This document shows, one piece after another, positions 6,601-60,438 of a DNA stretch of 64,000 nt. Where the stretch lies: IMG/VR virus record IMGVR_UViG_3300020577_007794; one strand, 5' to 3'. Positions within the stretch are counted from its first letter, which is position 1. Each line of letters opens with the position of its first letter. This stretch comes from a virus (Duplodnaviria > Caudoviricetes). The notes beneath the pieces are model-generated. The model saw only the letters and a list, made by a program, of their open reading frames with translations, ran no database searches and was not told the DNA's origin. Both the position numbers and the translations under genes were made by a program.

Positions 6601-6603
6601 TTT

Positions 6604-6679: not shown

Positions 6680-6698
6680 TTTTAACTAGTGAAATAAC

Positions 6699-6777: not shown

Positions 6778-6788
6778 ATATTATTAGT

Positions 6789-6948
6789 ATGAGTTACGGA
6801 GTTGGAGGGGGACCTACAGGGCCGGAACCAGATAGTGTTCCCCCAGATTCACCTATAGAATGTCATTATTCTTATTGCGAGTATTGTAAATCGAAACAAA
6901 AAAAGTAAAGAGATTAAATGCCCTAATTGCGGTGCCCCTTTAAAATGA
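6789..6948 (+). pseudogene. small zinc-ribbon protein split by a frameshift in an A7 tract
   Basis: CEYC lies in one frame and CPNCGAPL in another; deleting one A from 6898-6904 joins them. Confidence 0.6.
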
Positions 6949-7097
6949 AAGGAAGAATATCTAAAGAATTCCAGGAAATACTACACAATCCTGAAACTAG
7001 GAAGAAACTAAGGGAGATTGTGGATGGTGTCCTGAAGAGTGGGACTATTACCCTCCCGAATGGGAAAGTGGTTAAAATTAGGAGATGGGGGCAATAG
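6945..7097 (+). CDS. 50-aa hypothetical protein
   Basis: ATGA overlap with the previous stop; MKGRISKEFQEILHNPETRKKLREIVDG... Confidence 0.55.
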   Translation: MKGRISKEFQEILHNPETRKKLREIVDGVLKSGTITLPNGKVVKIRRWGQ

Positions 7098-11947: not shown

Positions 11948-11976
11948 GTTTCAAAGAAACCTCTAACAAATAGTGC

Positions 11977-12009
11977 CTCTATTTGCGTAGAGACTATCTA
12001 AAAATAGAG
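11977..12009. promoter_or_regulatory. divergent pair of CTCTATTT motifs (candidate phage promoters)
   Basis: CTCTATTT at 11977-11984 (+) and 12002-12009 (-), between two divergent genes. Confidence 0.5.
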
Positions 12010-12018
12010 GAGGCTGTT

Positions 12019-12108
12019 ATGGGAAAAGGCAAAGGAAAGGCAACCAAGGGCAAGGGTCAAAAACCTGCCCCGCAACCAGCAACACAACCAAAGAAAAAGA
12101 AGAAATAG
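12019..12108 (+). CDS. 29-aa Lys-rich peptide
   Basis: GAGGAGG RBS; MGKGKGKATKGKGQKPAPQPATQPKKKKK. Confidence 0.65.
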   Translation: MGKGKGKATKGKGQKPAPQPATQPKKKKK

Positions 12109-38801: not shown

Positions 38802-41800
38802 ATGTACCATAACGAGAAAGGTGAAGGGTTTACCGGTAAATTAGCAACCTTTGCTACTTTTGCAGGAATAACCGCAATAGCTCTAGGCTCCGCTCCTACA
38901 ATTGGGCGGAGCCTAGGACGTATTGGTGTATCACTAGCAAAGGATATTGCTGATAATCCTAGCATGTTTAAGTCAGTTCTAGGCCATGGTTCAGGCCTGA
39001 ACGAATCTAAACATGTTTTCTCAGATGTCTTCAACTTCATAGCAGATGAGCTTCCAAGATTAGATAACGTAATATACAGTGGTAATGCTCACACCACTAG
39101 AATGGAATCCATGCTTGACTCGTTAGCTTCTCATGTAGATGAAGCTAGTCAAGATATATTTAAATCAAAGAGGGGTGAAATTGGGGACGCTCTGCATAGT
39201 TTGGTCAAAGGTGTTGAAAAAGACAACATTGATAAACTTATGTCGGACACCCTTTTTAACAGATTTATAGAATCTTCTCAAGGGGTCCAATTCAAGTTCA
39301 TGGACCAAAAAGCTGCCACTGCTGGGGAGAAGATACTCAAGCAAAGACAGGAACTCACCCAAATCTTATCAGGTGCGTTGGAACGTGCAGAAACTGCGAG
39401 ATTCACAGCTAGTAGAACCTCAAAACAAATACTTAATACTGACAACAATCTGAATGTTGTCATGGATGCAGTCCACTCACATGTTGATCAATTAGAATCT
39501 ATAGGTTTAAGAAATCACCGGTGGATGGGTGATCAAGGGTTGACAAGACTCACAATTGGTGACATAACTATGGGTGGTGATGCTCATGATGCAGTAACTG
39601 AGTATCTCAAAAAGATTGGGGTGGATCATGAATACCACGGTAAAGCCCACCAATCACTTTTAGGGTTCATGGATGAACTAGATTTTAGTACCCTTGGTGC
39701 CAACGCAAAGTCAGATCTTATCTCTAAAATACACTCCCTAGATAGTGGGCTTGTTATGGATAAAGGGGGTAAGGTCTTTTCTATGGCCCACCCATTTAAC
39801 ATAGCAAAGGCCACTGCCTCTAGAACCTTACAAAATTTCCAAATACCACTAGTTCCAGGTGTCTTTAATATTCCAGGAACCCTTGGTAAATTCATGGCAC
39901 CAGATCTCGAAGGTATTAAATACCTTGGTAAAATGGGTATGCAGGGTGAGTTGAGAAGGGCTGGGGCGTTGTCTGGTCTCTCAGAAGATGCGTTTGGTGT
40001 AGCAATTGGTGACAGACTTATTGCCTTTGATGGTGATACAGCAAAGCATATAAATATAAAGGCCAACTTTATTAACACCTCTGCCTCAGAACATGCTAAA
40101 GAATTCGCTAGAAGTAGGGGTCAGGATGTTGAAGATCTTTTCGGTTCGTTTAAGGATTCTGTTGATGATGATGGAATTCTAAAAGCTGCATGGAATTACG
40201 TAAAGAAGAACGACGAACATTCTCACACCTTCCTTCAAAAAACATTGTTCGGTAGACAGAATGAGCTTTTTGACTTAGCATATACTGACAATGGGTTCAC
40301 ACTAGTTCCAAAAAATAATATTGGGGATGCAGGTGTGGCGGCAGCTCTTCATTCTGTCGGCAAGCTATCTGGGCTTGACTCTTCGGCCATAAACCCAATT
40401 TTGATGTCACGGTTCTTGGAGAACGGTGGGGTAGAAAATCTTCCTGGTTCAGCTTTACAAGATGCCTACAGACAGGTTTTCACACATGCATCAGCAGCAA
40501 ATGTTGACAGCAGTGCTTTTCTTAAACAAGCTGCTGATAAACTAAATTTCGATTCGTATGGTGAGTATGGCTCCCAGATTCAAGAACTGCTTAAAAACTC
40601 TAATGACCCAGCAGCTTTGCTTCATGCCATCACTACAGATAGCGGTAATGGCAGTCTTTTAGATAACTATAGCACCATCTCAAAGAACATCTCTCCAGAA
40701 TTATCAAGAGCTATAGCTGCAGTTGGGGAAAACAGTGATAGGCTTATGCAAATTGGTCCTAACCCTTCGGGACTGTTTGATAAGCTGAGAGATGGTGTAA
40801 TAGGTACAGACACACTTTCATCTCTCCACCTTCAGTTGCAGAAAGGTTTGGTTTCAGAAACTGTTCGACTTTCTGGTATTAATGAACTCACAACTCTATC
40901 AGGAAAGTCTCTCAATGAAACCTTAGACATACTGCACACCAACTCTGACCCTGCCTTAAGAAGAGCAGTCGCAGAAAAATTAGGATTAAAGTCATCATCT
41001 GATATTGGCTCTATAATTGACACCCTTAAAGAGGGGTTGGGAAGTGACACTTATGGAGATATTGGAAGACTTGTTTCTCCTATGGCGGATTTTGAGTCCC
41101 TGTTCGGAATGTCAAACGAACCTCTTGTTAAGGCTAAAATAGCTGAAGCAGCTAGAGTAGACTCTGTACTGGCAGCATATTACAGCAAGAATTACGAATC
41201 TCATAGTAAGATCATGGAAGGGTTGGCAAGGGGTGCCAATGTATCTGAGGCTGTGGCTAAGAGATTTGGTCTAGGTGGCGCAAACTTTACACCGGCAGAG
41301 TTTGATAATGTTCCTAAATTCTACGCTACAATCAAGACAGGTGATTTTGGGCCAGTGGAGCCTGGGTTTGGTTTCCTAAATCAACTAAAAGATTATGCCT
41401 CCAGTATAAATGCAGGTAGTTTTGCTCGTGGACTAGTTGACCCTAACGAGCCTATGTCTCACGCAGGGTTTGTGACTAATATTCTAATGCACATGCCTCA
41501 ATCTGTAGGTAATGCTGTAGGGCTTGGTCTTAGTTCACAAGAAGGTTTAACAGTAGGTAGATCTGTAGCAGGATTTGCTGTAAAAAGAGTTCTCCCTGCT
41601 TTTGTAGCATTAGAGATTTACAAAAACTACAATGCAGACATGCACAATATGGGTATGCCTGGTGTTGATGATATGGCTGGCAATGCGTATGCTAATGTAG
41701 GTTTAGCAAAAGCCAGAGTATTCGATGCTTTAGGTTTGACTGGTGCTTTAAAAGGATTAGTTGGAGCAGTGCCAGGTCTTGACCAATACGGCCACCCTAA

Positions 41801-44800
41801 ATCAGAAGAAGAGTTCAATGAAGAATTGTTTTACGGAGATGAGGCTGTACGTCGAGGAAGATTCTTTGTCATTGGCAGTAGAACCCCATTCACTGGTGGT
41901 GCAGTAGAGTATTTAAGACCCAACTTCTATAGAAGAATGAAGGCTCACTGGACAGAAGCTAGCAACGTCCAGCTTTCTAATCCCAAATACTCATTCCTTC
42001 CAACAATAACAAACCCACTTGCACCAATAAACAGGCTTCTCCATTCTGATTGGCAGGAGGAGTTAACTGAAGAAGATAGGCCTTATATGACAGGCAATCA
42101 ACTTCATGAGTTCCTTAACAACCAGCATCCTGGAGTTTATTTTGAGAATGCTCCGGTCGGTGGAGACGGTAATATTGGTTATATCAGTTACGGGGCTGGC
42201 CTACCAACCACTGTAAAGGCGTTTAGAGGCCTTTCTGGGGGCTTTAGCGGGGCGGGGGGTCCTGGAGGACCTGATTCTGGTTTTGGTGGCTCTACGGGCT
42301 TCTCAGGGGGCAGTGGGGGCGGCTCTGGTGGCAATACCCTAGGTAATGCTTATTATGAGCCTGGCACTGCTAAAATCAAGATTGGTAACAGAAAAGATAT
42401 ACCAGTAGATGCCCTTGAGAGAGATGGACTTCTATCTTATCTAGGAAGTATGGGTGAGGAGGCTACCAGACACATGGGGCTGTATGGTGGTATTCTAAGA
42501 AACTCCCCACTCAAATATGAACATGAAGGTATAGAAGTACAGGACCCAGAAGTAGCCTTTTCTAATAAAAGACTGTTCTTTAGTGGAGAATTTGGTGAAC
42601 TTACTGGCCCTGTTGGTGAATTTTACAGAAGGTTTATCTCAGAAGAGCATCAGTCTTTTGATGCGTTTAACCCTCTCCCAAACAGAATGCCAAGCTGGGT
42701 GCCTCAAAGATTCAGAACTGGTGACCCGTATATGCGAGTCTCTCATGGTGAATTCAATCTCCCAGGCGATGCCTATGAGCGACTCCACCCATACACTAGA
42801 CCTTTAAAAGCTAGAGGCTCTATGATTGGTCTTGAAAAGGATGAGATTGTAGCTAAAATGCTTGACCCAGTTGGTGCATACGAATCCGAGTCAGCAGAAG
42901 ACATAATGGGTTATGGTACGGCTACGCACAAACGTATCATGAGACAGCTTAGCAAGACTGGGATGATGGTGGGTGCTGAAGTTGCTGGATACGATCCAGT
43001 GCATAATATTTCAGCTACAATCGAAACTGTTATGAGAGGGCAGTCTGGTCTTGAAGTTGTAGAAATTAAAACCAGAGGTAATGAAACATTTAACACAGAC
43101 CCTGAAAAGTACGTTGATCAGTTGATGTTTTACATGTACCTTACCGGTGCAAAGCAAGGAAAAATTGCTCACGTTAATCGTGACAACCCCAACCAAGTCA
43201 GATTTGCAACATACAAATATGATGAAAATAGGATGCAAGCTGTTTTTGAAAGGGTGGAAGAGGCAAGGGGTGAGATCAGGGAAATGGTAGAAAAGGGGAT
43301 AGTTTCCCCCTACGAAACCTACGATCTTCTTTCTAGAATTGAAATCTTAGCTAAGACAGCCCCAGACTCTCCTGAATTTAGGGAGTATGTACACCATGCG
43401 CAGACTAAGGGTGGCTTTGGTGGTATGGAACAGGTTCGATTTGAACGTGCTATAAAATCGGCTCAACTTCTTAGAGAAGACTTTAACATCTATCCGTATA
43501 GAAACGTACCTACTGAAACTCGTGCTGCTAGAGTTAGGGGATTTACGGATGAAGGTGAAATTGTCACCAATATGGGTGTCATTAAGCTCGCCGGTGTGAA
43601 GTGGGATAAACAAGCTTTTACCATGCAAGACCCTGAAGATCTTATGTCTCAGTATGGAATTGTAGCAGGAAAAAGCATAAACATCACCCTTCCACAAGGA
43701 GGTTTTAATCCTGAGGTTATGGAAGATGTTACTACGTCTGCTTTGGTGGGTAATGTAAATAGCCGATTGATTCATTCCCAATATGCAGACCCAGACTATG
43801 CCGATAAATCAGCCATGGGTTCCCTTGCTAGGCAGGACAAATTAAACAGTCTTTTAGAGAAACTCCTTCACTCAGATAATGTTATCAGCAATAAATGGCT
43901 GAGGGTGAGGAGTGGTCTTGAGCAGTTTGAGCGAGGTGAAGTTTTCGGCACTGAGAACCAATCTTATAGAGATCTTTGGGGCAATTATATAGAACCAACA
44001 TTCAATATGGTCGTCTCCAAGAACCCTATTACTGCTGCTCTTCAAGGCGGTATTGTTACCTCTTTCTTCGTTAAAGGAAGGGCGGCGAAGGGTAAAGCTG
44101 CTTTGATTGGTGGTGCAGTAGCAGGATTGATATCTACAGGTAGGTTGGCCTATCAAGCTGTGACTGGAGAGACCCAAGTACCCCATAGATACAGGGCTCA
44201 GACAGAATTTGATGAGTACTACGACCTATTAAATTACATAAAACAGGCATCTCTGGGGGCGTCTGCGCAAAATCATGTCTATAAAAAGGATAAAACAATG
44301 AAAGATCAATTGGATTATTCAAATGTAAGTAGAACAAGAGAACAGGTGGATGCCTTCGGGGTGCTGGCTCTAGAGGCAGAAAGAAAAGCTAGACAAACTA
44401 TGTATGGCTTCGATGTAGTGAAAGGCACGTTGCAGGACGCACTAGCTGCTATACCACGACGACATAGACAGATAGCTGAGTCTGTAATTGTTGACGGGAC
44501 ACAGAGTGAAAAAGCTAAGTTCTATAACCTCCTTCCAAATTCGGAAAGAAGAGTATTAGGTAAGTTTCTCGGTAAACCACAAAGCTCTCTACCAAGTAAG
44601 CCTAGTCTCAATAACTACTTCAAGAATCACTTCCTTCCTGACGCTGACTGGTTGGGTTGGCACCGAAATGTTGACTTAGAAGACATAAAGACAAGAGCCG
44701 CAGCTTTAGAGAAGATGAAGATTGATCAACCATCAAGATCAAGAGTCAGTAAGGCTAGAGCTTATACCAGAGACATCCCAGTACCCAAAATGCACTCGAG

Positions 44801-44975
44801 TTCCCACAGCAGTATTAGTGGTCTACTACAGAGACTTTCTGCTTCAGGGAACATTGGAAGTACCAGGTTCACAACCTCATACCTTCCGACAACAGAAAGT
44901 GCGGTGACTGTGAACATGAAGTTCATAGACCAAAATACCCAAAAAACAGATGAACAAATAACATCACTGCTCTGA
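38802..44975 (+). CDS. giant tape-measure-position protein with TM segments and a PD-(D/E)XK-like domain
   Basis: Follows the chaperones; hydrophobic helices; GTATH...ATIET...VVEIKT...QLMFY. Confidence 0.7.
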   Translation: MYHNEKGEGFTGKLATFATFAGITAIALGSAPTIGRSLGRIGVSLAKDIADNPSMFKSVLGHGSGLNESKHVFSDVFNFIADELPRLDNVIYSGNAHTTRMESMLDSLASHVDEASQDIFKSKRGEIGDALHSLVKGVEKDNIDKLMSDTLFNRFIESSQGVQFKFMDQKAATAGEKILKQRQELTQILSGALERAETARFTASRTSKQILNTDNNLNVVMDAVHSHVDQLESIGLRNHRWMGDQGLTRLTIGDITMGGDAHDAVTEYLKKIGVDHEYHGKAHQSLLGFMDELDFSTLGANAKSDLISKIHSLDSGLVMDKGGKVFSMAHPFNIAKATASRTLQNFQIPLVPGVFNIPGTLGKFMAPDLEGIKYLGKMGMQGELRRAGALSGLSEDAFGVAIGDRLIAFDGDTAKHINIKANFINTSASEHAKEFARSRGQDVEDLFGSFKDSVDDDGILKAAWNYVKKNDEHSHTFLQKTLFGRQNELFDLAYTDNGFTLVPKNNIGDAGVAAALHSVGKLSGLDSSAINPILMSRFLENGGVENLPGSALQDAYRQVFTHASAANVDSSAFLKQAADKLNFDSYGEYGSQIQELLKNSNDPAALLHAITTDSGNGSLLDNYSTISKNISPELSRAIAAVGENSDRLMQIGPNPSGLFDKLRDGVIGTDTLSSLHLQLQKGLVSETVRLSGINELTTLSGKSLNETLDILHTNSDPALRRAVAEKLGLKSSSDIGSIIDTLKEGLGSDTYGDIGRLVSPMADFESLFGMSNEPLVKAKIAEAARVDSVLAAYYSKNYESHSKIMEGLARGANVSEAVAKRFGLGGANFTPAEFDNVPKFYATIKTGDFGPVEPGFGFLNQLKDYASSINAGSFARGLVDPNEPMSHAGFVTNILMHMPQSVGNAVGLGLSSQEGLTVGRSVAGFAVKRVLPAFVALEIYKNYNADMHNMGMPGVDDMAGNAYANVGLAKARVFDALGLTGALKGLVGAVPGLDQYGHPKSEEEFNEELFYGDEAVRRGRFFVIGSRTPFTGGAVEYLRPNFYRRMKAHWTEASNVQLSNPKYSFLPTITNPLAPINRLLHSDWQEELTEEDRPYMTGNQLHEFLNNQHPGVYFENAPVGGDGNIGYISYGAGLPTTVKAFRGLSGGFSGAGGPGGPDSGFGGSTGFSGGSGGGSGGNTLGNAYYEPGTAKIKIGNRKDIPVDALERDGLLSYLGSMGEEATRHMGLYGGILRNSPLKYEHEGIEVQDPEVAFSNKRLFFSGEFGELTGPVGEFYRRFISEEHQSFDAFNPLPNRMPSWVPQRFRTGDPYMRVSHGEFNLPGDAYERLHPYTRPLKARGSMIGLEKDEIVAKMLDPVGAYESESAEDIMGYGTATHKRIMRQLSKTGMMVGAEVAGYDPVHNISATIETVMRGQSGLEVVEIKTRGNETFNTDPEKYVDQLMFYMYLTGAKQGKIAHVNRDNPNQVRFATYKYDENRMQAVFERVEEARGEIREMVEKGIVSPYETYDLLSRIEILAKTAPDSPEFREYVHHAQTKGGFGGMEQVRFERAIKSAQLLREDFNIYPYRNVPTETRAARVRGFTDEGEIVTNMGVIKLAGVKWDKQAFTMQDPEDLMSQYGIVAGKSINITLPQGGFNPEVMEDVTTSALVGNVNSRLIHSQYADPDYADKSAMGSLARQDKLNSLLEKLLHSDNVISNKWLRVRSGLEQFERGEVFGTENQSYRDLWGNYIEPTFNMVVSKNPITAALQGGIVTSFFVKGRAAKGKAALIGGAVAGLISTGRLAYQAVTGETQVPHRYRAQTEFDEYYDLLNYIKQASLGASAQNHVYKKDKTMKDQLDYSNVSRTREQVDAFGVLALEAERKARQTMYGFDVVKGTLQDALAAIPRRHRQIAESVIVDGTQSEKAKFYNLLPNSERRVLGKFLGKPQSSLPSKPSLNNYFKNHFLPDADWLGWHRNVDLEDIKTRAAALEKMKIDQPSRSRVSKARAYTRDIPVPKMHSSSHSSISGLLQRLSASGNIGSTRFTTSYLPTTESAVTVNMKFIDQNTQKTDEQITSLL

Positions 44976-45049
44976 CGAGCAAACCATGCCTATGATATAT
45001 ATAGATACAACTAATTTTAATCAGCACAAAATTAAGTTAAGAAAAGCCT

Positions 45050-46192
45050 ATGTTAAATATTAAAACACCTAACCAATTTTTAGATCTAGCACTACAAAAC
45101 GGTATCCCCGATACCTTAGCTCATGATATTTATCAGAGAAAAGCTGCTAGCAAAACAGTAGATGACGTTCTAGCCAATGCAGTGCTTACAGGTTACTTCG
45201 ACAATATTGCTGAAGCAAGAAAGGCATATGCTTTAGTTTGGCGAGATTGGGTCCTACTAACAAAGTCTTCTGCTATTATGGAGGCTGGAAGTATCAAGAC
45301 ATCTTCTAGTTCCCAATCTTATATGGTTGCTGTCGAACCTGACAAGGAAAGTATTCTTGAAAGAGCTTACTCTGCATTAGAATCAATGATCGGCCCTTGT
45401 GGAACCACAGCTAAATCAAAGACAACTGCCAACAATAAGATTATTCTGGCATCAGACTTTCATTTACCATTTCTGCACAAGCCAACCCTTAATGCAATAA
45501 TGGCCTCGGATTCTGACCACTTAATCATAGCTGGTGACTTTATGGATATGTACTCTGCTTCGTCTCACAGACCAAGTATTGACTATCTAACAGCTACGGA
45601 AGAGATAGCTATTGCCAGAGCTACTCTTGAAATGTTGGCTAAGAAATTTAAGACTATCAAAATGATTTCAGGTAACCACGAGAATAGAGTTGTGAAAAAG
45701 ATTCAAAATCTTGCTCCACAACTTCAGCCTCTAGTTATCCACCCATTAAAGTTGATTAGCTACGGATTGGATAATGTTTCAGTTGAAAATCTAACAATCC
45801 CTAATACAGCACCTATGTCAGCTTTTGCAACAGACATTGACCTAGACTTCGCAATGGTTGAAAGCAATATGTTGGTGGGTCACTTTGAGGAGTTCTGTGG
45901 TGATGATGCCCCAGTTAAGTTGGAAGAGTGGTTGAATAAATTCTCTCACAAGCTTCCGTTTAAGGTATCTGACATCAAAGCAGTTTTTCAAGCGCATACA
46001 CATAGGCTAAATATGCGATACACCGCAACTGGTAGATTGCTGATTTCTACAGGTTGTGCTTGCGGAGTTCAGGAGTATGTGTGGAGACAGCATAGCAAGT
46101 ATTCTCCACCTACTCCAGGCTTCGTGGAACTTTTTTACGATGAAAAGGGAAATATTGACTTCCCCCAGACAAAACTAGTATATACAGGCTAA
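45050..46192 (+). CDS. calcineurin-like metallophosphoesterase
   Basis: SDFH, GDFMD, GNHE, VGH and AHTHR motifs. Confidence 0.92.
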   Translation: MLNIKTPNQFLDLALQNGIPDTLAHDIYQRKAASKTVDDVLANAVLTGYFDNIAEARKAYALVWRDWVLLTKSSAIMEAGSIKTSSSSQSYMVAVEPDKESILERAYSALESMIGPCGTTAKSKTTANNKIILASDFHLPFLHKPTLNAIMASDSDHLIIAGDFMDMYSASSHRPSIDYLTATEEIAIARATLEMLAKKFKTIKMISGNHENRVVKKIQNLAPQLQPLVIHPLKLISYGLDNVSVENLTIPNTAPMSAFATDIDLDFAMVESNMLVGHFEEFCGDDAPVKLEEWLNKFSHKLPFKVSDIKAVFQAHTHRLNMRYTATGRLLISTGCACGVQEYVWRQHSKYSPPTPGFVELFYDEKGNIDFPQTKLVYTG

Positions 46193-46503
46193 TGGAATCT
46201 ATAAGACAAGCACAGAAAGTGATTACCCCTGGAGAGAAATCTTCAGGGTATAATCGAAAATTCAACAACAGGTATGGTAGGTTGGATCAAAAGATCCCAG
46301 AATCAATAACAGAGAAAGCTATTTTGGACTCAATCGAACAAGATTTTAAGGACGGAAAGATCACAGAGAATGTGTATCTAAGAAAAAAGATTCTAGCCCA
46401 GGGAAAGGTTGCCAGCCTTTTATGGATTGCAACCACCAACAATATGGGGAAGAGCCCATATCCTAAACTATCTGGGAGACCAGTAAGGAATAGATCGCGC
46501 TAA
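46192..46503 (+). CDS. basic hypothetical protein
   Basis: TAATG coupling; 103 aa. Confidence 0.6.
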   Translation: MESIRQAQKVITPGEKSSGYNRKFNNRYGRLDQKIPESITEKAILDSIEQDFKDGKITENVYLRKKILAQGKVASLLWIATTNNMGKSPYPKLSGRPVRNRSR

Positions 46504-46533
46504 GTTTGCTCCTGTGTTATTGTTGTTCATGGT

Positions 46534-46560
46534 AAGGCCACCTTCGGGTGGCCTTTTTTC
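46534..46560 (+). terminator. Rho-independent terminator
   Basis: AAGGCCACC-TTCG-GGTGGCCTT followed by TTTT. Confidence 0.93.
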
Positions 46561-46564
46561 GTAG

Positions 46565-46572
46565 CTCTATTT
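46565..46572 (+). promoter_or_regulatory. CTCTATTT candidate promoter
   Basis: Directly after a terminator and 11 nt upstream of the next start codon. Confidence 0.5.
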
Positions 46573-46583
46573 GATAGAAAATA

Positions 46584-49500
46584 GTGGCTAGACTGGATAG
46601 AATAACCAATCTGCCTACCGAACCAGGCGATACGGTTCGAGATAAGAAAACTAAGACCGATTACATAGTCCAGTCTATAGTCCCCTATGTTGTGGGTGGA
46701 GCTAGCTTATACTACCTACTTAACGCCTATACCGGCAAATTAGAACAAGTTATAGCTAATGATTTAAAAGACAGAGACTTTCAACCAACAAGAAAGAATG
46801 TGGAGAGAATGACCCCAGAACAGGTCAGAGAATCTAGATTAGATACGTTGGTACGTGGAATGAAAGGCAACGAAGATCTTCTTCGGAAACTAGAAACACC
46901 AGAAGGCTCAGTATTTCGGGACCTGCTTCTTCTCATAGATGATATGGATGATAGTCAGGTTAAAGAGAAGTTTAGAAAATTTGGAGAAACCTTAGTTAGT
47001 GTAACTGACAGGGTGTATAACTCTACCGAGATTCTCGAGTTGATGCAGCAATCACTTGGGGACTCGGCTTCTTTTTATGGACATGAGTACCTTTCAGATT
47101 TAGCAGAAGAACTCAGTGAATACACTTCTGCAAGAACAGGCACTAATAAACTTTCTACTTACGCTGTTCCAAGATTCAACGCAACCAGAGATATTGCCGG
47201 ATTTGAAAAAGTCAACGGTAAACAGGGTTTTGTAGATAGGGCACTTCAGTACTCACTCAGTAAAAGTGAGAGATCCCTTTCTTCAAGAAAAGAGTTTGTA
47301 AATACAGTAAGACAGACTGTTTTTAATAGAGAAGGTTTCTCTTCCCCAGCTATCAGAAGATCAGCTGGAATGAACGAACTGTTTGATAATATTACCGACC
47401 CATATTCCAGAGTTGCTAAAATGGTAGCTGCGTCTCTTGGGGGGAAAGCTACTGAAGAGACCAGAATTGTAAGGAACATCACCAATAAAATTCTGAATGG
47501 GGACGAAGCTTTAACTGCTGCCCTTATTGACTCAGATATAAACGGTATCTTCTCTAATCTCTATCGTCAAACAACATTTAGAACTAGAGCTGGATTAGCT
47601 AATAAACTCTCAGCTAGAAGAACATCTAGCGCGGCCAGGAGAGCTAGACCTACAAAAAGATTAAATGTATCAAGTCTTTTGAAGGGTATGGACAGAGTTG
47701 GGGATACTGAGAAGTACATATCTATAAGCAAGAGTTCATTAATAAATGATGTTATAGGCTCAAAAAGTGTATCTGTAAATTCTTCTAAAGGTATTGTTGG
47801 GACCCTTAGACAAGACGCAGTTCGCAAGAAAATGGAATCTCTTCCAGAGGTTATTACAATGCCAGCCTCTGTGTTAAGAAAACAGGTGGATTCTAACATT
47901 GTCTCCATTGAAGAGATAGAACTGGCACATAACCAAACACCACAACAAATAAGCAGAGAACTTCGTGGAAAGATGGGTGGAAGAGGTGCTGCGGTTGGAT
48001 ATGCTGGGGCGTTTAACCACAATGCGAAGGCTGCATTTTTCGAGGTCAATGATAAAAAATTTGACACACTAGAAAAGGCTAGAACCAACCTCCTTCCAGA
48101 TCAGAGCATCTATAGTATAAAGGCTTTCAACAAAATGGGGAATGAAATACCTCTTTTCCCCCAGGTAATAAAAGTTGAAACTGATATGGACTTGGTAAAT
48201 GAAAGCTACCACCAAGCCAAAGATGAATCAAGGCTGGCTTATTATACTATACAAAATTCTTCTGGAGAGAAAAGTGTTAATCTAATTGGTTCGTCAATGA
48301 ATGTTTCTATTGATGACCAGATTGACAGAGCCTTCGCAGCTGCTAATACCAGAGGTAGAAGTTCCCTATCTTTGGATATTGAAAACAACCCAGAAACAGG
48401 TGCTATCACAGAGATAGGCGTAAGCTTTAGAGATACCGAAGGTGGTTACAAACCTCACTTCAATTTTGTGGCTGGGAATGGAGAATCTGAATCTAATGCT
48501 ATTCTAAGACTTGTAGGTAGATTGGAAAATGCTGATTATGTCGGCACTATGACAGCCCATGACTTCAGTACACTAGCTTCTAGAGCCATGGCCTTATCCA
48601 AAACCTCACAGAGCCCAACAATGCAGAAGAACTTGGAGGCGGCATACTATAAGCTTCTAGAAATTGAGCAAAAAGCTGGGTATGACTTTACTGTAGGTTT
48701 GACAGCTGCTGGGCAGTTTGGGGATACCCCCTTGACACTTGGTAACATAAGCCAGGATTACCTTTCCCCCAAAATCCTAGGCAGGGCTGAAACTCATACT
48801 GCTATGCAAGATAGTATGGACGCTCTTGAAATCCAAGATAAAATACGGGTTGGAGAGCTTCAAGCAAGCAAAGCAGAACTCGGAACAATCTTCCAAGTAA
48901 GATCAACCAGAGTTAATAGAGACGGTTCTTTTGGGAGATTGACAGGCTTCGAAAGACGTGGTGAAGGAAGTTCAGCCTTATTTGAAGAAATGGTTTTCAA
49001 TGAAGGCCGATTTACCACAACTGGTTCTTTATTTGAGCTTCAAGCTGACGGTACTTCACAGCTTGGTGCTGCTATGCGTGGCCTCATTCCAGTAGGTCAT
49101 GGGGAAGCTGTTGCCCCCAATGTTGATATAAATGAAATGGTTCAATTCACTTCCAGGAGAATGGAAGAAAGAGGTTCCAGAATTATTAGAGGCATCAACC
49201 CGCTTAACACGTCCTATTACGATGCTACAACTAGATTTGGAATTGAAGGTGGAAATCTTTTTGGTCTACACGAACTTTCAGTGGTTCAACAAACCAGAAG
49301 TCTTTTAGGCAGCGAGAAGGCTCAGGAAATTCTTAAAAATGTTGGAAGTATGCAGTTTGATCAGATAGAAGAAGCTGCTAGAGACTTGGCATCAACTGTT
49401 CAACTTGGAGATGACGCATCCAAACCTGGATACCAGGCAAGACTTGTAGAGAGTGTGACAAATGCTTTTACGGATGCACAGTACCGACAATCCTTGACTA

Positions 49501-51089
49501 AATCTTCCCTAACTGATCTTCTTGACTCAGCTGCTGGTAAGTCTTTAGTTGGGATGGCAGAAAAAGGAATAGATGGAAACTTTATTGAACAGTACGCTGC
49601 TCCTGCGTTGAGCCTTTCCTTTATGGGAGAAGTTGCCGGTATTCAGGCACCAACATCGTTTGTTTCCGACCCGAGACTGCGACTTCAAACCTTTGACAGA
49701 TCGGGACCTTTCCAAGGTGCAGTGACAAACGTTCTTGGCTACAATACTACTGAAAGAGAGGTAGAAAACTCTGTCAAGAGTTTGATAGGTCAAACTATGC
49801 TAGCTACCACTTCCAGCAAAGCCCCTGGAGCGGGTGCCTTTATAGAGAATGCAATCGGCCCAGAGGGACTGAACAAAGTAATTGAAAGTGTTTCCTTACT
49901 GAGACAATCAAAAGAGATCAAGGATGACATCCATGCACTCGATGCCCTCTCTACCACACTTTATAGTGACCCCTCTATAAAAAGGTTAGCTGATGCTATA
50001 GATGAATCGGATTTCTTCCACGGAAACATTAAAGAACAGCTTCTTCGTAGAAATGATCTTCTAAGAGAACACAAAGATGCACTAGGTGTTCATGATGTAG
50101 ATATTATTACTGAACGATTTAAAAACATAGTAGAAGAGGAGTTTGCTAAAACTAGTTCTGCATCTTCTGCAACTGCCGCATCTATAAAGAGAGCACAAAA
50201 TCAACTAGGTGATGCCGCACACACTCTATTCTCTGACGTAACACCTGACTCCTTAGATTTTAATGCCATCTCTAAATTAGGTTCAGAGAAGGTTGATGAA
50301 TTAACAAATGATGCACTGAGAAGAATACATGAAATGACCACTCAAGGTACAGGTGGTTCGGATGTATTGCAACATATTTTTGATAAAACAGGTGAACTGA
50401 GAAATGTATACTTTAAGTCTGGTTTATCGCCAAGAGATCAAGCCATAGCCTTAAATGCATTTGTTAAAGAATCTGAAGAAGTCGTTAAATTGGGTTCTCA
50501 GACAACTAACCCTATTGAACTGGTTCATTCAGTGTTCTTGAAGTACCAGAATGCTGCTCAAACAGCAAAAGCTTCCGCCCCAACGTTGACTGAAATGCAA
50601 AGCACTATAGTCAACCAAGCTACCTCACTTGCAGCTAATGCTTCTGAGGATATATCGTTGAAGGAAGTACAACATACTGTTCTTCTTGGCAACAAGATTG
50701 CCAGTGAAATGGAACTCAAAAAAGTTACGGTACCTCTACTAGCTGTAGGAGGTTTGTTAGCTCTTATTGCAGGAAGCAGCAGACCTAAAGAGGAGTATAG
50801 TGGTGGATACGCCAGCAAACAGTCTCCAGGGGTCATAGCGGCCCATTCAGAGATACCCGGCACTGGATCTGGTACCAGAGTCTTTATGGGTCAGGAAGCC
50901 CCCTTCCAAACAACAGTGAATATGACATCCTATGTTCAGTCTGAAAGAGAGAAACAAGCTATACAAACCAAAGTGTACGATATGATTACTGGAACAGCTA
51001 GACCAGTTCAAGTACGAGTAGACAATAAAGACTTTAGAAAGAATGATCACAGAGAAACAGCTATGGAGCAACTAAGACAGGCATTGTAA
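46584..51089 (+). CDS. giant putative ejection protein with a DEDDh 3'-5' exonuclease domain and a C-terminal hydrophobic helix
   Basis: SLDIE (ExoI), AHDF (ExoII), HTAMQD (ExoIII); VPLLAVGGLLALIAG. Confidence 0.72.
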   Translation: MARLDRITNLPTEPGDTVRDKKTKTDYIVQSIVPYVVGGASLYYLLNAYTGKLEQVIANDLKDRDFQPTRKNVERMTPEQVRESRLDTLVRGMKGNEDLLRKLETPEGSVFRDLLLLIDDMDDSQVKEKFRKFGETLVSVTDRVYNSTEILELMQQSLGDSASFYGHEYLSDLAEELSEYTSARTGTNKLSTYAVPRFNATRDIAGFEKVNGKQGFVDRALQYSLSKSERSLSSRKEFVNTVRQTVFNREGFSSPAIRRSAGMNELFDNITDPYSRVAKMVAASLGGKATEETRIVRNITNKILNGDEALTAALIDSDINGIFSNLYRQTTFRTRAGLANKLSARRTSSAARRARPTKRLNVSSLLKGMDRVGDTEKYISISKSSLINDVIGSKSVSVNSSKGIVGTLRQDAVRKKMESLPEVITMPASVLRKQVDSNIVSIEEIELAHNQTPQQISRELRGKMGGRGAAVGYAGAFNHNAKAAFFEVNDKKFDTLEKARTNLLPDQSIYSIKAFNKMGNEIPLFPQVIKVETDMDLVNESYHQAKDESRLAYYTIQNSSGEKSVNLIGSSMNVSIDDQIDRAFAAANTRGRSSLSLDIENNPETGAITEIGVSFRDTEGGYKPHFNFVAGNGESESNAILRLVGRLENADYVGTMTAHDFSTLASRAMALSKTSQSPTMQKNLEAAYYKLLEIEQKAGYDFTVGLTAAGQFGDTPLTLGNISQDYLSPKILGRAETHTAMQDSMDALEIQDKIRVGELQASKAELGTIFQVRSTRVNRDGSFGRLTGFERRGEGSSALFEEMVFNEGRFTTTGSLFELQADGTSQLGAAMRGLIPVGHGEAVAPNVDINEMVQFTSRRMEERGSRIIRGINPLNTSYYDATTRFGIEGGNLFGLHELSVVQQTRSLLGSEKAQEILKNVGSMQFDQIEEAARDLASTVQLGDDASKPGYQARLVESVTNAFTDAQYRQSLTKSSLTDLLDSAAGKSLVGMAEKGIDGNFIEQYAAPALSLSFMGEVAGIQAPTSFVSDPRLRLQTFDRSGPFQGAVTNVLGYNTTEREVENSVKSLIGQTMLATTSSKAPGAGAFIENAIGPEGLNKVIESVSLLRQSKEIKDDIHALDALSTTLYSDPSIKRLADAIDESDFFHGNIKEQLLRRNDLLREHKDALGVHDVDIITERFKNIVEEEFAKTSSASSATAASIKRAQNQLGDAAHTLFSDVTPDSLDFNAISKLGSEKVDELTNDALRRIHEMTTQGTGGSDVLQHIFDKTGELRNVYFKSGLSPRDQAIALNAFVKESEEVVKLGSQTTNPIELVHSVFLKYQNAAQTAKASAPTLTEMQSTIVNQATSLAANASEDISLKEVQHTVLLGNKIASEMELKKVTVPLLAVGGLLALIAGSSRPKEEYSGGYASKQSPGVIAAHSEIPGTGSGTRVFMGQEAPFQTTVNMTSYVQSEREKQAIQTKVYDMITGTARPVQVRVDNKDFRKNDHRETAMEQLRQAL

Positions 51090-51799
51090 TGGAAGATATT
51101 ACTGATCAATTAGCAGATGCGGGAAATGCGTTAAACCCGCTTTCTGAGGATAAAGCAGAACAAAGATCTCACCTATTTACGGCCAGTATGGTGTCTGCCG
51201 CCGCCAGTATAGGAACAGGTTTTCTAACTAAAGATAAGTTGAAGTCAAGAATGATCAGGAATTCAACATTTTTCACCGCAACATTCGCTGCGGGAATGTA
51301 CTCCGATATTGACCATGGTGACAGTCCTAGTACAGCTATCCTTGTTAACTCTCTAACTGCTGTAGCGGGTATTGTTGCGTTTACTGCGGCAAAAAAATTA
51401 GTACCTTCTGGATTTAGAGCTCTTGCTGGCGCAATTGAAGAACACACAGGAAATAGATCACTCAGCCTGTTATCTGAAAGATTCGCTCAAGCAGTTAAAA
51501 ATGTACCACAGATCGAGTATTTTTTAAACAAGGACACAATTGGACTAGCTGGTTCTTCTGTAACTATTCCAGTAGCTCACTCCTTGGTGCATAGAATAGT
51601 TGCAGACGGACATAGAAGAAGAATCAATTCTGCGCCTATGGCCCACCAATCTTTTAAAGTGGAAAACCAAGCCGGTGATTCAGGTGATCAGACAGAGATG
51701 TCTGGTGAAAGACCTGTAGGAACAAATGAAATAAAGAAAGCGACATTTAACACTGTGATGGTACGGTCCAGTGTTTCGAATTTAACAAGAATGGTTTAA
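51089..51799 (+). CDS. Ala-rich membrane-like virion protein
   Basis: Translationally coupled; several hydrophobic helices. Confidence 0.6.
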   Translation: MEDITDQLADAGNALNPLSEDKAEQRSHLFTASMVSAAASIGTGFLTKDKLKSRMIRNSTFFTATFAAGMYSDIDHGDSPSTAILVNSLTAVAGIVAFTAAKKLVPSGFRALAGAIEEHTGNRSLSLLSERFAQAVKNVPQIEYFLNKDTIGLAGSSVTIPVAHSLVHRIVADGHRRRINSAPMAHQSFKVENQAGDSGDQTEMSGERPVGTNEIKKATFNTVMVRSSVSNLTRMV

Positions 51800-57800: not shown

Positions 57801-59771
57801 GGTGCTATTTTGACTACAAATGATCAAACAATAGTGGACAATGCAGACCCAACAATGTTGAGGGATGTTGAAAATTTCGTAAAACACCTTTATTGGAAAC
57901 CATATATTCAAGCATGGCCAGCAGTAACAGGACTCAACCTCCTTTCCAACAACATTGTTCCATCTCAAAAAGATGTGTACACTGATGCTAAAGGGCAACA
58001 TACGTTTAATGGTTGGATATCTAGAGATACCCCTGTAAAAACAATCACGTATTGTGTGGACAGTGATATATCACCAAGTACTCGAAGAACTATGTTGGTT
58101 GATACCGGTCTTCTTGTAACAACCGTTCAAAGAGGTTTCACAAATACAGTTGCAAAGGGTGCAGCTAATATAGCTAACTCAGTTCTAGGTTGGACTCCAT
58201 GGACTCCGGTAATTTCTGAGTTTATAAATGAAACTCCAGATACCCCTGCTATCGAAAACTCTGTTGTTAATGCTTTGTGTAATTCTGTTAAGGAAATGTA
58301 TCAAGGATGGTTTTCTATTTCTGGTCAATCAGCTATGAAACCAAACGATCTAGTTCTCCTTAACGATGCCTACAACGGTATGGAGGGGCCTGTTTTTATA
58401 GGGGATGTTATTCATAGAATGGATTCCTCTACAGGCTTTGTTACCTTAATTTCTCCAGACTGTGTAGCTCTCCCACACTCAGCAATTATCGGCCAGAGGT
58501 TGATTGTGGCGCATTCAAGTGGGCCGTTAGCTAAGGCTGGTCAGTATGTAATAGGTTCAGCTGCCTGGGCTGCTATGGCTTTTTCACTTAAAAAGCTTTC
58601 TTCAAATCCATTCTCAGCAAGGATATTGGAGTTAAAAGAGTTAACAAATAGGTACACAGTAGCTGAGGCTTTGGGTTCTAAAAATCTTACTAACACTGTA
58701 AAGACGCAAATTCTTTCTGCTATTGATGCTAGAATGGCGGCAATAGCAGAAGCAAGTAAAAAGGGATTATTCTCGTCTCTACGAATAGAACAACTTAAGA
58801 AAACAAGACAGGCAATCGAGGCCTCAGAAAATCTTTCTGCAGTCTTCCTTTATGCTAATGAGTCTGGTATAAACGTTGGACAGATTCTCAGGGATATTCC
58901 AGGTGTTAGCCTTGATTTTGAGAGATTGGTTTCTATTATCCATAATTCTCAAAATCTTTACATAGAGATGTTGAGAGAACTAAAAGCAAACCCAGCTACA
59001 TCTCAGCTATCTGAGCAGGAAATTATTAGGCTAGTAGAAAATAAGGTAGTAAAACAGCTAAATCAAACTTTGATTGATGCTGATCTAGCTGTTGCAGGAG
59101 ATTCTGCAACTGATGGGCTATCTGAAATATCTGCTCTCCTAAGAAATGAATCAAAACTGAGACCATTAATTGATCCAGGAACTATCCAAGTTACCGATGA
59201 AGTTATTGAAGAAGCCTGGGCAGCTGCTAGATTCAAAGCAGCTACATCACCTGTTAGACTTGTAAATATGTTGAAGGGGGCAGAGGTTGCGCTGTCTGAT
59301 AGTGTCAGATTGAGGCGAGCAACAAAACTTCTTTCCAAATCTATATCAGGATTGTCATTGGCTTTGTCAGCAATTGGTCCCGGAGTAATTGCTAGACTAG
59401 CATTTGAAGTGGTGAGATTTAGCATCGGTCAAACAGTTATACAAGGTATTAACTCTAGACTTATGGCTAGACAGGCTGTAAAAATATTTCCACTTAGAAG
59501 TATTCAATCCAATGGTACCTCAATTCCGTTTGTAGCTGGAATTAGAGGACATCAAGGAGCAGTAGTTGGGGACGACCCAGGCTACTTCGATAAACTTCTC
59601 AGTGGTAAATTTGAACCCAGCATCCCCTTTACAGATGGTTTGAAGCTTTCATTCATTCTGTCTGCTCTACTTGGTGTTGAGATACCTGAGTACGGTAATA
59701 CGGATGTTGACAATCTTTACATCCAAAAGATGAAAGAAGTGGAGGATAAGAGAGTAAATGGAAGAAGGTAA
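51801..59771 (+). CDS. 2656-aa baseplate hub-like structural protein with a degenerate SLT-like domain
   Basis: GARIQVRMGYG...VFNGTI and GQSAMKPNDLV...VIHRMD hub-type motifs; precedes the hydrolases and baseplate genes. Confidence 0.62.
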   Translation: MLSASLSNLIKSTTNTVKGQLVNIGRSGTKVVFEIKTADSKIYKVSATSSQAAIIVKTLNLSQNIVAAALGPGISDELRSNLISDKIFVEIPVEKSISGSEASVLSGGERKSSRIENPTTTKGKAEDEKKEKEDLTTVYPTDNWPGLMEESRFLPVKVPGILGTSNTRIGHAVFSAPIQFFTSQRTSYIEQSPTLRESGSIKKGTGLAFQTYTINYFATDAEEVRTSVKEVFDQLLLLPFISCQGGPFGFTPGDGDIPYHDFAVRSYSLATVPGHPSVLNVQISLEPLLFDIYCQVKDCKESQSGYQVTMDDIVCWPLVKLWTGSNEKSTYNPILTTLNGSLRMSLPSKKVINRIVDEADKFKSTLLNTEVDTLETLKILITEPRGAAISSNNAKLVESEVLAGSGRKIAVVKFEDQFNYSSLQQNSQFLGLVRWEKFSGNRFSSNGTFLPQSGTVNLDRSSSFVTNQVGITNYKTRGSNEFSWIDVVASKGDISTLIDQFLKDEQKQRAEPTSQLGTLPSINPLTDDMITHIKNNPWEYFALVLDVKVENESSLLRSINQLLNQAKTKATIPSMSERKNFDRILAEEDLVDSEVFMDTGIGNTDLIIESIMSTRTNNLSTQHVQGCHIPKHQFLGGGTAEFSIKGKCLSKTAKERLEALKLEFDRRCHLTFSGPSAGSIKNNPDSTPFVRVVNEVFQLMGVDFVMPVSLRVDSIPEQPNVWEFEMALLEFNPKTQASERVKFLETTLQTQAAVLNYQAPGDLTPDPLIQKAQEYFSLEDSLKSLEILPDMGLPTKTILDKWIDIIREEAIYRKINKVPRPKSTLSATEAEVVDHLEHFFQNNDCLTIMSHFKERDTTKRTSYTGSFVDPDFYFFYDPNKTWGALLDKLAMQEFGRRLPGFSSDKVEENGLEAFYQEFSPLFGTTTMFSSDYLSSRASTTEDELISAAKNSYPPSLAKQAHDATMSQVEGAKFEQYPGAWWTTPTNVSPVDETKTFEDSNPEYLKGPYINPNVKVSAFDSNAANTGVTPAEFDGSLEEFLSIAWRRKRAEVNTSYALKDSNIRLNGGSGIGFASKDGISFYKSLINSGFLFTAQPVSTYSAIGGSVGDFGKYNYLADNLPMDASYISARLNGVLPVGGKSLKEIEEESKIALLQTGHDDLVSEWGYIPRSIHATRKYAIRYGGTEIVATPLAALGATTTEALVNTQDMFNSIAGKYRIDPNIARAFFLRRTGFGTIKNETVDSNGVGFGDLSVDIASKLSNAEQVELFCEKFRRNLDRLNNVPTLALAATVAQLTYKGRALYVTGTDGIGTSEPGGSSDKFRLNKQTFYNVLKEAASKLNSPETKFSIKGAEIITNALAKTALASDIDTYWTAYIEVCRVLGSVRLPGQYLSKVDAYFDPFNALILTDSETNTEYANTSLTPSGNKIRVSMSRGEVTQTTADIQVLGDPNNPVSAEQDAELRVRLKFGLEPHSEASAWGSMFDCRRYSVFGRFVQAYPSFCVLLVNEGFYFAEGSVKLWDQFYTRAGITNIEVFKSRKDPAHSCSVTYSNMFYSISRYTQMEALRQEIAVDSNNRFQSTFGLGAGTPLESIEGALRRFWAAAISKEPDPRLLKTWATNHLNQLALTAGARIQVRMGYGSNASTLPVVFNGTIIDAPIGGQGEVTIKAAGDGFELNNPVTDRLVKVDNGFAYRSQEGFLGAGTEPSQIVVQSMIPNSMFVAALTQGRYGVTRVAPHFGEIIFGGTSYSIPEVMMNMYGASRKHLSQSFNFIKNTFNKNALYNWDDTTLISVSVHEPTVWKTAQVCAQAVMDYVTSPEPFHTRSTLFFGRWWYPFNYAYSPSILGQNNVSSLYTASRSTTANSVPSIDGSTPRNTSPKGFPTQEAKGVELKFEILPDGPFKETLENEKNVATLVDLNVFDKKEDTATIIAGVAGLFGQSLAANLLAELKKKYLGSDEKAKWGFGIFNPKNGGPTYALVMTLGDDGILRTQKLKDFTYTPSSAGAILTTNDQTIVDNADPTMLRDVENFVKHLYWKPYIQAWPAVTGLNLLSNNIVPSQKDVYTDAKGQHTFNGWISRDTPVKTITYCVDSDISPSTRRTMLVDTGLLVTTVQRGFTNTVAKGAANIANSVLGWTPWTPVISEFINETPDTPAIENSVVNALCNSVKEMYQGWFSISGQSAMKPNDLVLLNDAYNGMEGPVFIGDVIHRMDSSTGFVTLISPDCVALPHSAIIGQRLIVAHSSGPLAKAGQYVIGSAAWAAMAFSLKKLSSNPFSARILELKELTNRYTVAEALGSKNLTNTVKTQILSAIDARMAAIAEASKKGLFSSLRIEQLKKTRQAIEASENLSAVFLYANESGINVGQILRDIPGVSLDFERLVSIIHNSQNLYIEMLRELKANPATSQLSEQEIIRLVENKVVKQLNQTLIDADLAVAGDSATDGLSEISALLRNESKLRPLIDPGTIQVTDEVIEEAWAAARFKAATSPVRLVNMLKGAEVALSDSVRLRRATKLLSKSISGLSLALSAIGPGVIARLAFEVVRFSIGQTVIQGINSRLMARQAVKIFPLRSIQSNGTSIPFVAGIRGHQGAVVGDDPGYFDKLLSGKFEPSIPFTDGLKLSFILSALLGVEIPEYGNTDVDNLYIQKMKEVEDKRVNGRR

Positions 59772-60438
59772 TCCCCTATCGGCAAACCCCTCAGAAACGA
59801 ATAGAGATTTACTAGATGCTATTTTGGAAAAGCACAGACTAGATGAAATAGATCTATTATCTCTTGACAAAGCTTTGTGGACTGAGACACCTACTTCCCT
59901 AACTGCGGCAACCAACAATCCAACAAGTGACAGCTCATTTTCTGTTAATGTTTCTGCTGATGGTTCTGTAGATAAACCTCTTCCTGGTGGTTCGCCATCA
60001 AGAGGGAGTTTAATGAACAAAGATGGAACTCAGCAGCCTACCAAGATTAGAAGTAAGTACACTGAGTTGATTTACAAAGCTGCTAATGCGCATGGATTGG
60101 ACCCAGTATTATTTGAAGCACTTATTTGGGCTGAGAGTGATTTCAATCCAAAGTGTAGATCTGGAGTTGGTGCTATGGGTTTGGCTCAACTTATGCCCCC
60201 GACAGCCAGAATGTTGGGGGTTAAAGACCCCTGGGACCCAGAACAAAATTTGATGGGTGGGGCTAAATACCTAGCTATGCAATTTAAGACCTTTAAAGAG
60301 GTCAAATTGGCTCTAGCTGCGTACAACGCTGGTCCTGGAAACGTAAGGAAATATAAAGGAATTCCACCTTTTAAAGAGACACAGAATTATGTTACAAAGA
60401 TTCTGAAAAAATATCAGGAGTATAAGAGTGGAAAATAA
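59758..60438 (+). CDS. lytic transglycosylase (SLT)
   Basis: AESDFNP, GAMGLAQLMP, ALAAYNAG and ETQNYV. Confidence 0.96.
   Translation: MEEGNPLSANPSETNRDLLDAILEKHRLDEIDLLSLDKALWTETPTSLTAATNNPTSDSSFSVNVSADGSVDKPLPGGSPSRGSLMNKDGTQQPTKIRSKYTELIYKAANAHGLDPVLFEALIWAESDFNPKCRSGVGAMGLAQLMPPTARMLGVKDPWDPEQNLMGGAKYLAMQFKTFKEVKLALAAYNAGPGNVRKYKGIPPFKETQNYVTKILKKYQEYKSGK

Follow-up and report, generated by a model that had tools for sequence, protein, structure and literature searches.

The course of the first minutes of infection is set by enzymes that enter the cell together with phage DNA; known examples are virion RNA polymerases, anti-restriction proteins, and wall hydrolases. The subject of this report is the stretch 38802-51799 of a 64,000-nucleotide sequence from a tailed virus (Caudoviricetes; IMG/VR virus record IMGVR_UViG_3300020577_007794; the whole sequence is called the window hereafter), in which two genes encode giant proteins of 2057 and 1501 amino acids (aa), each with a domain of a predicted nuclease fold. 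In Bacillus phage 0305phi8-36 (NC_009760), the genes of the corresponding region are arranged in the order of sheath, tube, the chaperone pair gp143/gp144, gp145, gp146 (assigned as the tape measure protein), and gp147 (hub). Both gp145 and gp146 were detected in the virions by mass spectrometry (GenBank notes, NC_009760; Hardies et al. 2007, PMC2147016). As for Thermus phage P23-45, the N-terminal part of gp96, the 5002-residue tape measure protein, is a virion RNA polymerase (RNAP), for which transcription at the entry pore was proposed (Chaban et al. 2024, PMC10770324), and gp64 is a separate, non-virion RNAP (PMC10770324). The polyvalent proteins of phages and conjugative elements are large multidomain proteins with nucleic-acid enzymes among their domains, and a joint entry of protein and DNA into the host has been proposed for them (Iyer et al. 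2017, PMC5512222).

The gene order in 38802-51799 matches that of the annotated 0305phi8-36 region, and the tblastn matches of the 2057-aa protein and of the 2656-aa protein encoded downstream were restricted to the group of this phage (0305phi8-36, Moorella phage MTATph1, and Bacillus phages Edson, WH1, and KLEB27-3). Thus, the stretch is read as the putative gene block for the tail core (tape measure slot) of a jumbo myophage distantly related to 0305phi8-36, an assignment that is well supported by the synteny. Both giant genes occupy the tape measure slot, with the tail chaperone pair on one side and the baseplate hub on the other. The 2057-aa protein belongs to the gp145 family: the homology covers the conserved middle and C-terminal parts (residues 904-2018; BLASTP, E = 6e-62), and its gene immediately follows the chaperone pair and precedes those of the slot giant and the hub. 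Homologues of this protein were found in 29 IMG/VR loci with a family-alignment scan. No match was obtained with megablast of the region against phage records, and the largest contig encoding these proteins was 194 kb. An earlier note on this DNA had proposed that three giants (1272, 2057, and 1501 aa), each with hydrophobic Gly/Ala helices and a nucleic-acid enzyme fold, form a co-ejected complex; a check of the open reading frames (ORFs) gave the same sizes and coordinates.

The PD-(D/E)XK fold claimed for the 2057-aa protein was confirmed by profile and motif comparisons, as a predicted RecB-like domain inserted at residues 1354-1504. This region matched phrog_1706 (E = 4.1e-13) and phrog_434 (E = 4.5e-9), and the isolated domain matched PF12705 (PDDEXK_1) with 22.5 bits (cut-off, 22; the whole protein scored 17.7 bits, under the cut-off). 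The motifs of the window domain are GTATHK, ATIE, VVEIKT, and QLMFY; the corresponding motifs, GTxxHK, hhD, (E/D)IK, and QLxFY, could be aligned across nine homologues, and the catalytic residues are intact in the window, G001, L014, L015, L017, and L018 (G and L numbers are our handles for related contigs and loci). G001 is the IMG/VR contig UViG_3300020576_005257 (235 kb; CheckV estimate, 95% complete). The searches of PDB sequences with the domain profile and with the 2057-aa protein gave noise only. A Cas4 identity was considered and rejected, because residues 1340-1520 include no cysteine and hence no four-cysteine Fe-S cluster; the domain is thus RecB-like, and the label of phrog_1706, 'CRISPR/Cas associated', is not decisive. 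Outside the domain, moderately hydrophobic Gly/Ala helices were found at residues 14-30, 921-937, 977-993, and 1767-1783, and the region of 1767-1783 is conserved with gp145.

The DEDDh exonuclease domain claimed for the 1501-aa protein was likewise confirmed, by motifs, a partial fold match, and the profile of relatives. The motifs SLDIEN, AHDF, and HTAMQD occur at the DnaQ-like spacing (D598/E600, D660, and H738..D743) and are conserved in P0002 (52% identity), the sole close homologue among 5.8 billion proteins. An AlphaFold2 (AF2) model of residues 540-860 had an overall predicted local distance difference test score (pLDDT) of 47; the core (pLDDT 55-90) was predicted to have the beta-beta-beta-alpha-beta-alpha topology of the RNase H-like fold. 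The best PDB matches of this core with VIA were ExoI (1fxx; Z = 8.0, root-mean-square deviation 2.9, 94 aligned) and the PolC exonuclease (2p1j; Z = 7.6), and the top rows of the all-against-representatives comparison (Z = 5.5-8.0) consisted of ExoI, PolC exonuclease, polymerase B exonuclease domains, Cas2-DEDDh, the epsilon subunit, 3'hExo, and RNase T. A DEDDh domain was also found in the slot giants of three more distant relatives (L014, L015, and L018), with canonical motifs in L014 (YIDIET / GHNIQFD / EEHIGVYD) and L018 (FLDIET / HNMGFD / EEHIGLKD) and a degenerate ExoI motif in L015. The profile built from these three matched the ExoII region of an archaeal PolB exonuclease domain (2jgu_A; E = 2.2e-5), and the window-family hidden Markov model (HMM) matched the L014 giant (E = 1.3e-5 and, in another search, 0.0012). 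The sequence link of the window domain to a known family is therefore indirect, via the L014-type relatives. Direct searches with the 1501-aa protein gave no match in Pfam, PHROG, or PDB sequences (phmmer), and Pfam gave none on the domain region either; no usable match for the DEDDh part was found in the ESM Atlas, no match among phages with tblastn, and no similarity to Moorella CDS0027 with BLASTP. The scans of viral contigs for further members of the family returned G001 alone, and the scan of metagenome contigs returned none.

The best-conserved part of the 1501-aa family is the C-terminus, in which a helix of transmembrane grade (residues 1381-1397; Kyte-Doolittle hydropathy (KD) 2.24) is followed by PKEEYSGGYAS.QSPGVI.A.SEIPG; a similar C-terminal helix was found in the slot giants of G002, G003, and G006. 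The 236-aa protein encoded next to the slot giant has hydrophobic helices at residues 30-46, 84-100, and 151-167, of which 84-100 is of transmembrane grade (KD 1.95). The hydrophobic Gly/Ala helices of the earlier note are thus present, but they are mostly moderate, and the transmembrane grade was reached only at 1381-1397 of the 1501-aa protein and at 84-100 of the 236-aa protein. The Gly + Ala fractions of the four small proteins noted there are 0.34, 0.25, 0.35, and 0.19. The full gene order is retained in G001 (2076 aa, a metallophosphoesterase (MPE) of 380 aa, 1568 aa, 241 aa, and the hub), with 27-40% identity to the window. An MPE gene follows the gp145 homologue in the window, G001, and L015, and probably in L014. 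The MPE of the window matched PF00149 with 23.3 bits (cut-off, 21.5) and phrog_221 (E = 6e-13), and the search of PDB sequences with it gave noise only. The nuclease-bearing pair is present in G002, G003, and G006, in which no RNAP of either type was found. The family of the 1272-aa RNAP-like protein (see below) occurs in one of the 22 records with a gp145 homologue, and the YonO-type RNAP in 0305phi8-36 only. The co-occurrence across related genomes, proposed as a check in the earlier note, was thus seen in the near clade for the nuclease-bearing pair, and for the RNAP-like gene in the one record only. The tail modules of G002 and G006 also encode, between the slot giant and the hub, a complete DNA polymerase of family A that includes a 3'-5' exonuclease (L044:6984-8960 (-) and L045:6334-8415 (-), respectively); the G002 copy matched PF00476 (E = 4.6e-77) and PF01612 (E = 4.9e-18), and the G006 copy was judged from its C-terminal motifs.

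The explanation that we favour, and to which we give somewhat better than an even chance, is that the two giants are components of the tail core that the virion expels at infection, together with the accessory DNA-end nucleases built into them. On the basis of the homology, the synteny, the folds and motifs, and the co-conservation in the near clade, the gp145-like protein and the slot protein would be built into the virion tail and expelled on sheath contraction, and their conserved hydrophobic helices may help to breach or line the membrane, as those of tape measure proteins do. The RecB-type PD-(D/E)XK domain of the first giant and the DEDDh 3'-5' exonuclease domain of the second, with the MPE gene kept alongside, would then work on the ends of DNA in the freshly infected cell; they may target the terminal repeats of the phage itself, or host or defence DNA. 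Delivery at infection is a reasonable inference because of the position in the module, the homology to the virion protein gp145, the nuclease folds, the conserved helices, and the order kept in G001.

Several observations weigh against this explanation. The virion placement comes from a homologue with 25% identity and concerns the 2057-aa protein only; no similarity of the 1501-aa protein to gp146 was detectable with BLASTP and HMM comparison. The DnaQ fold match is middling (Z <= 8) and derives from the model with the overall pLDDT of 47. The nuclease catalytic residues are intact in the window but degraded or deleted in some relatives: three DEDDh residues are lost in the slot protein of G001 (1568 aa, 27% identity; E600G, H738A, and D743G), and in the PD-(D/E)XK motifs of L020, L022, and L023 the catalytic Glu is replaced by Gln and the Tyr by Ala. 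In motif II, Glu replaces Asp in the window and G001, Asp being present in seven of the nine homologues. The PD-(D/E)XK insert was found with local HMMs in eight of about 22 distinct gp145 homologues and is absent in the rest; in CDS0026 of Moorella phage MTATph1 (L002:13808-19657), the whole insert is cleanly deleted, with both flanking conserved blocks kept. In addition, a folded globular domain of 150-180 residues may not fit the lumen of the tail tube. Apart from this, a transposase gene breaks up the tail module of MTATph1 further along.

A wider version of the same idea appears doubtful when taken as a whole, although it is less improbable than the alternatives considered below. In this version, the tail core of a clade of 0305phi8-36-like jumbo myophages would deliver a three-part kit of the RecB-type nuclease, the DEDDh exonuclease, and the MPE, which would, on entry, resect the phage's terminal repeats so that the genome circularises rapidly, or destroy DNA of the host or of defence systems; the back-to-front RNAP of the window would once have been a passenger of the slot, now detached but still loaded in trans.

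The losses in the active sites also bear on an alternative that we consider unlikely, in which the nuclease folds are kept mainly as non-catalytic modules for DNA-end binding or structure, for example, holding the leading genome end in the tail. Such a role would agree with the tolerance of active-site loss (the three DEDDh residues lost in G001, the degenerate ExoI motif in L015, and the Gln and Ala changes in L020, L022, and L023) and with the dispensability of the entire PD-(D/E)XK domain in many homologues. However, the full DEDDh set is kept in the window, P0002, L014, and L018, and the full PD-(D/E)XK set is kept in six homologues at 25-40% overall identity; the retention of complete catalytic sets fits selection for activity.

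The third giant of the earlier note, the 1272-aa protein, had been called a permuted RNAP. It is probably a two-barrel polymerase with the Asp half first; this reading is kept at the motif level because Asp and Lys motifs and sub-profile alignments point to it, while every other test was blank or uninformative. An exhaustive HMMER search collected eight full-length relatives (25-31% identity). D199, M200, D201, and D203 are invariant (family consensus, DMDGDE; window, DMDAD), and the second motif is beta-like (K983-x7-K991, then D..h.NQ..SR.N); the order, Asp first and Lys second, is the reverse of that in the described single-chain enzymes. The sub-profiles were aligned to RpoC 447-470 (NADFDGD) and RpoB 1065-1119 (K1065 and K1073), which ranked first and second of 142 sequences with non-significant E values of 0.44 and 0.15. 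No match to the 1272-aa protein was found in Pfam, PHROG, PDB sequences, or Foldseek, or with tblastn against phages. The AF2 model was poor (pLDDT 50.7), and Foldseek and VIA with the 1200-residue model matched helical hairpins only. BLASTP and hhalign indicated no relation to gp99 of 0305phi8-36, and PF00562, PF00623, and PF05183 were searched for in G001 and not found. The other large ORFs of the window and of the G001 loci lack a DxD[GA]D motif. Of the permuted RNAP, therefore, the DMDGD-type and K-x7-K motifs stood, whereas significant homology and a confident fold were not obtained.

Both in the window (8129-11947, minus strand) and in G001 (L010:10233-14015), the RNAP-like gene stands alone on its strand directly beside the packaging module, with all of its neighbours on the other strand. 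The gp99 gene, unrelated to it, likewise adjoins the terminal repeat that borders the structural arm of 0305phi8-36. In the window, the RNAP-like protein ends in a Gly-rich hydrophobic helix (KD 1.38) followed by RRKK. This tail is shared with an 87%-identical relative and, weakly, with two others, and is absent in G001 and most members; it was thus rejected as a feature of the family.

The element CTCTATTT, noted earlier upstream of the RNAP and DEDDh genes, has nine copies in the window (expected, 4.4; three of 100 shuffles reach nine). Five of the nine are located at most 60 nucleotides (nt) upstream of start codons (7827, 12019, 11947, ~32112, and 46584), which is far above chance by a rough binomial estimate. 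In G001, the element is kept at both sites, as CCTCTATTT-N28-AAATAGAGG before the RNAP-like gene and as CTCTATTT 9 nt before the GTG of the slot gene. Because of this enrichment upstream of starts and the conservation at both G001 sites, CTCTATTT is regarded as a real regulatory element, probably a promoter. The two copies at the RNAP-like gene were not counted as independent sites, as they are the arms of one inverted repeat. Although the element is real and conserved, it is not specific to the two genes; since it precedes several genes, it shows co-regulation and not a physical complex. Note that a 29-codon, very basic ORF (MGKGKGKATKGKGQKP...KKKKK) is present at 12019-12108 (+) between the RNAP-like gene and the packaging module, and that its AGGAGG ribosome-binding site falls within the right arm of the CCTCTATTT inverted repeat.

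These data can be set against a further alternative, that the RNAP-like protein is packaged and ejected with both nuclease giants as a membrane-embedded complex and performs early transcription during DNA entry, as proposed for P23-45. The tape-measure-fused RNAP of P23-45 is a precedent (PMC10770324), and nine distant loci with a gp145 homologue (L020, L021, L022, L023, L029, L033, L038, L039, and L040) contain D.DGD inside the slot giant just after this homologue (for example, KADYDGDFL and HFDFDGDIA) and lack it in all their other large ORFs. At the motif of L021, a sub-threshold match to PF00623 was obtained (E = 0.0043); the slot giant of L020 gave a sub-threshold match to a DEDD exoribonuclease (Rv2179c-like; E = 3.5e-4). 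These slot giants are candidate tail-core-fused RNA polymerases of contractile-tailed phages, and because of them the polymerase and the tail core appear to be linked in the wider lineage. In the window itself, the conserved CTCTATTT common to the RNAP-like and slot genes, which G001 shares, the place of the gene beside the packaging module, which is unchanged in G001, and the Gly-rich helix with RRKK at the end of the protein would agree with co-ejection. However, the gene is not encoded in or fused to the structural module, being a lone minus-strand gene outside the tail module, its family is found in a single gp145-homologue record, and the hydrophobic tail is missing in G001 and most of the family. 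The D.DGD motif occurs in no slot giant of the near clade of the window, and hhalign of the 1272-aa family against the DxDGD-bearing slot regions gave a probability of 0.3%, with no homology to gp99 either. The GenBank note for gp99 records no virion detection; the separate, non-virion RNAP of P23-45 is a simpler analogue for a stand-alone gene; CTCTATTT is upstream of other genes too; and the RNAP identity comes from motifs. Co-ejection of the RNAP-like protein is thus improbable, to about the same degree as the non-catalytic role above: the link is not supported for this phage and plausible for the wider lineage, and the RNAP-like gene is treated as a separate accessory gene that is not counted in the tail-core apparatus. 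What stands of the complex in the earlier note is the pair of nuclease-bearing giants in the tail module, of which the 2057-aa protein is homologous to the virion protein gp145.

Finally, it is very unlikely that the enzymes are not delivered but act in the producing cell (trimming or processing DNA at packaging or tail attachment) or are mere accessory genes in a permissive tail-operon hotspot. In favour of this, relatives do have unrelated accessory genes between the gp145-MPE pair and the slot giant: in L014 (15238-19009) and L015 (15213-18518), this hotspot contains genes for a ClpP protease, an RRXRR protein, an N-acetylmuramoyl-L-alanine amidase, and an N6/N4 DNA methylase. The family A DNA polymerase gene of G002 and G006, located after the slot giant, points the same way. 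Against it, the PD-(D/E)XK and DEDDh domains are not separate genes but are fused within giants whose flanks are conserved tail-module sequence.

If the nucleases of the tail-core giants are delivered and active, they would represent a new class of injected effector. This would bear on the survival of genomes with long terminal repeats against host exonucleases, and the tail core would emerge as a cargo route for nucleic-acid enzymes in general, with the P23-45 result extended to a further phage lineage. The intact and decayed active sites among the relatives constitute a natural experiment on the nuclease role.

The positions of the features are listed in Table 1. Upstream of 38802, the PHROG and Pfam scans identified the large terminase, the portal, the major head protein, two sheath genes, and three tube paralogues. 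The 190-aa protein of the putative chaperone pair matched gp144 (BLASTP, E = 0.007), and an hhhWRxhoRxE-like motif is kept in both, which weakly suggests the chaperone identity. The terminator before the 1501-aa gene is the strongest in the region. Elsewhere in the window, the intergenic stretches at 4362-4722 and 6494-7038 resemble, by eye, putative tRNA gene clusters.

Table 1. Features of the tail-core block and of related parts of the window.
Feature	Position	Strand	Evidence or remark
RNAP-like protein, 1272 aa	8129..11947	-	DMDAD at residues 199-203; K983..K991
Inverted repeat CCTCTATTT-N17-AAATAGAGG	11976..12010		Region from which the RNAP-like gene and the packaging module diverge
Candidate tail assembly chaperone pair, 229 and 190 aa	37526..38792	+	Positional equivalents of gp143/gp144 of 0305phi8-36
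gp145 homologue, 2057 aa	38802..44975	+	tblastn 2e-47 and BLASTP 6e-62 against gp145
RecB-like PD-(D/E)XK insert (predicted), residues 1354-1504 of the 2057-aa protein	42861..43313	+	phrog_1706, PF12705, motif alignment
Calcineurin-like MPE, 380 aa	45050..46192	+	PF00149, phrog_221
103-aa protein	46192..46503	+	No family match in Pfam/PHROG scans
Intrinsic terminator (46534-46555) and T-run, then CTCTATTT (46565-46572)	46534..46572	+	11 nt before the GTG start of the 1501-aa gene
Tape-measure-slot protein, 1501 aa	46584..51089	+	Located after the gp145 homologue and before the hub
DEDDh (DnaQ-like) 3'-5' exonuclease domain, residues ~590-750 of the 1501-aa protein	48351..48833	+	Motifs, AF2 and VIA, relatives
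236-aa protein with three hydrophobic helices	51089..51799	+	Counterpart beside the slot giant in G001 (241 aa)
Baseplate hub, gp147 homologue, 2656 aa	51801..59771	+	phrog_20474, E 4.4e-85; closes the module
SLT and VanY hydrolases, separate genes after the hub	59758-61156		SLT 1.6e-27, VanY 5.8e-19

The window shares with 0305phi8-36 the gene order, the gp145 homologue (2057 aa), and the gp147 homologue (2656 aa), and gp145 retains the DIK and QQLNFY motifs of the nuclease domain. It differs in that gp146 is not detectably similar to the 1501-aa protein, that 0305phi8-36 has no phosphoesterase gene between gp145 and gp146, and that its own RNAP, gp99, is a member of the YonO/RdRP family (PF05183) with no sequence relationship to the 1272-aa protein. 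The nuclease domain is not mentioned in Hardies et al. 2007 (PMC2147016). As for P23-45, a nucleic-acid enzyme likewise resides inside the giant of the tape measure slot, and a second, stand-alone RNAP gene is present; however, the tail is non-contractile and the fused enzyme is an RNAP, not a nuclease. The slot protein of the window has no DxDGD, and the RNAP-like protein of the window, in which the Asp motif precedes the Lys motif, has a gene of its own. The tape measure proteins of T5 (Pb2) and mycobacteriophage TM4 carry peptidoglycan hydrolase motifs. They resemble the giants described here in having catalytic domains embedded in a tail-core protein with hydrophobic C-terminal segments, but these domains attack the cell wall, whereas in the window the wall hydrolases (SLT and VanY) are separate genes and the embedded domains have predicted nuclease folds. 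The polyvalent proteins are also big multidomain nucleic-acid enzymes with a proposed entry into the host to establish infection; unlike the giants of the window, they are described as head-packaged or delivered by conjugation, often with metallopeptidase domains. DarB of phage P1 is an example alongside them. A text search of PMC5512222 found no tape measure proteins, no 0305phi8-36, and one use of 'exonuclease'. In our literature search, no paper was found on nucleases built into the tape-measure-slot proteins of contractile-tailed phages.

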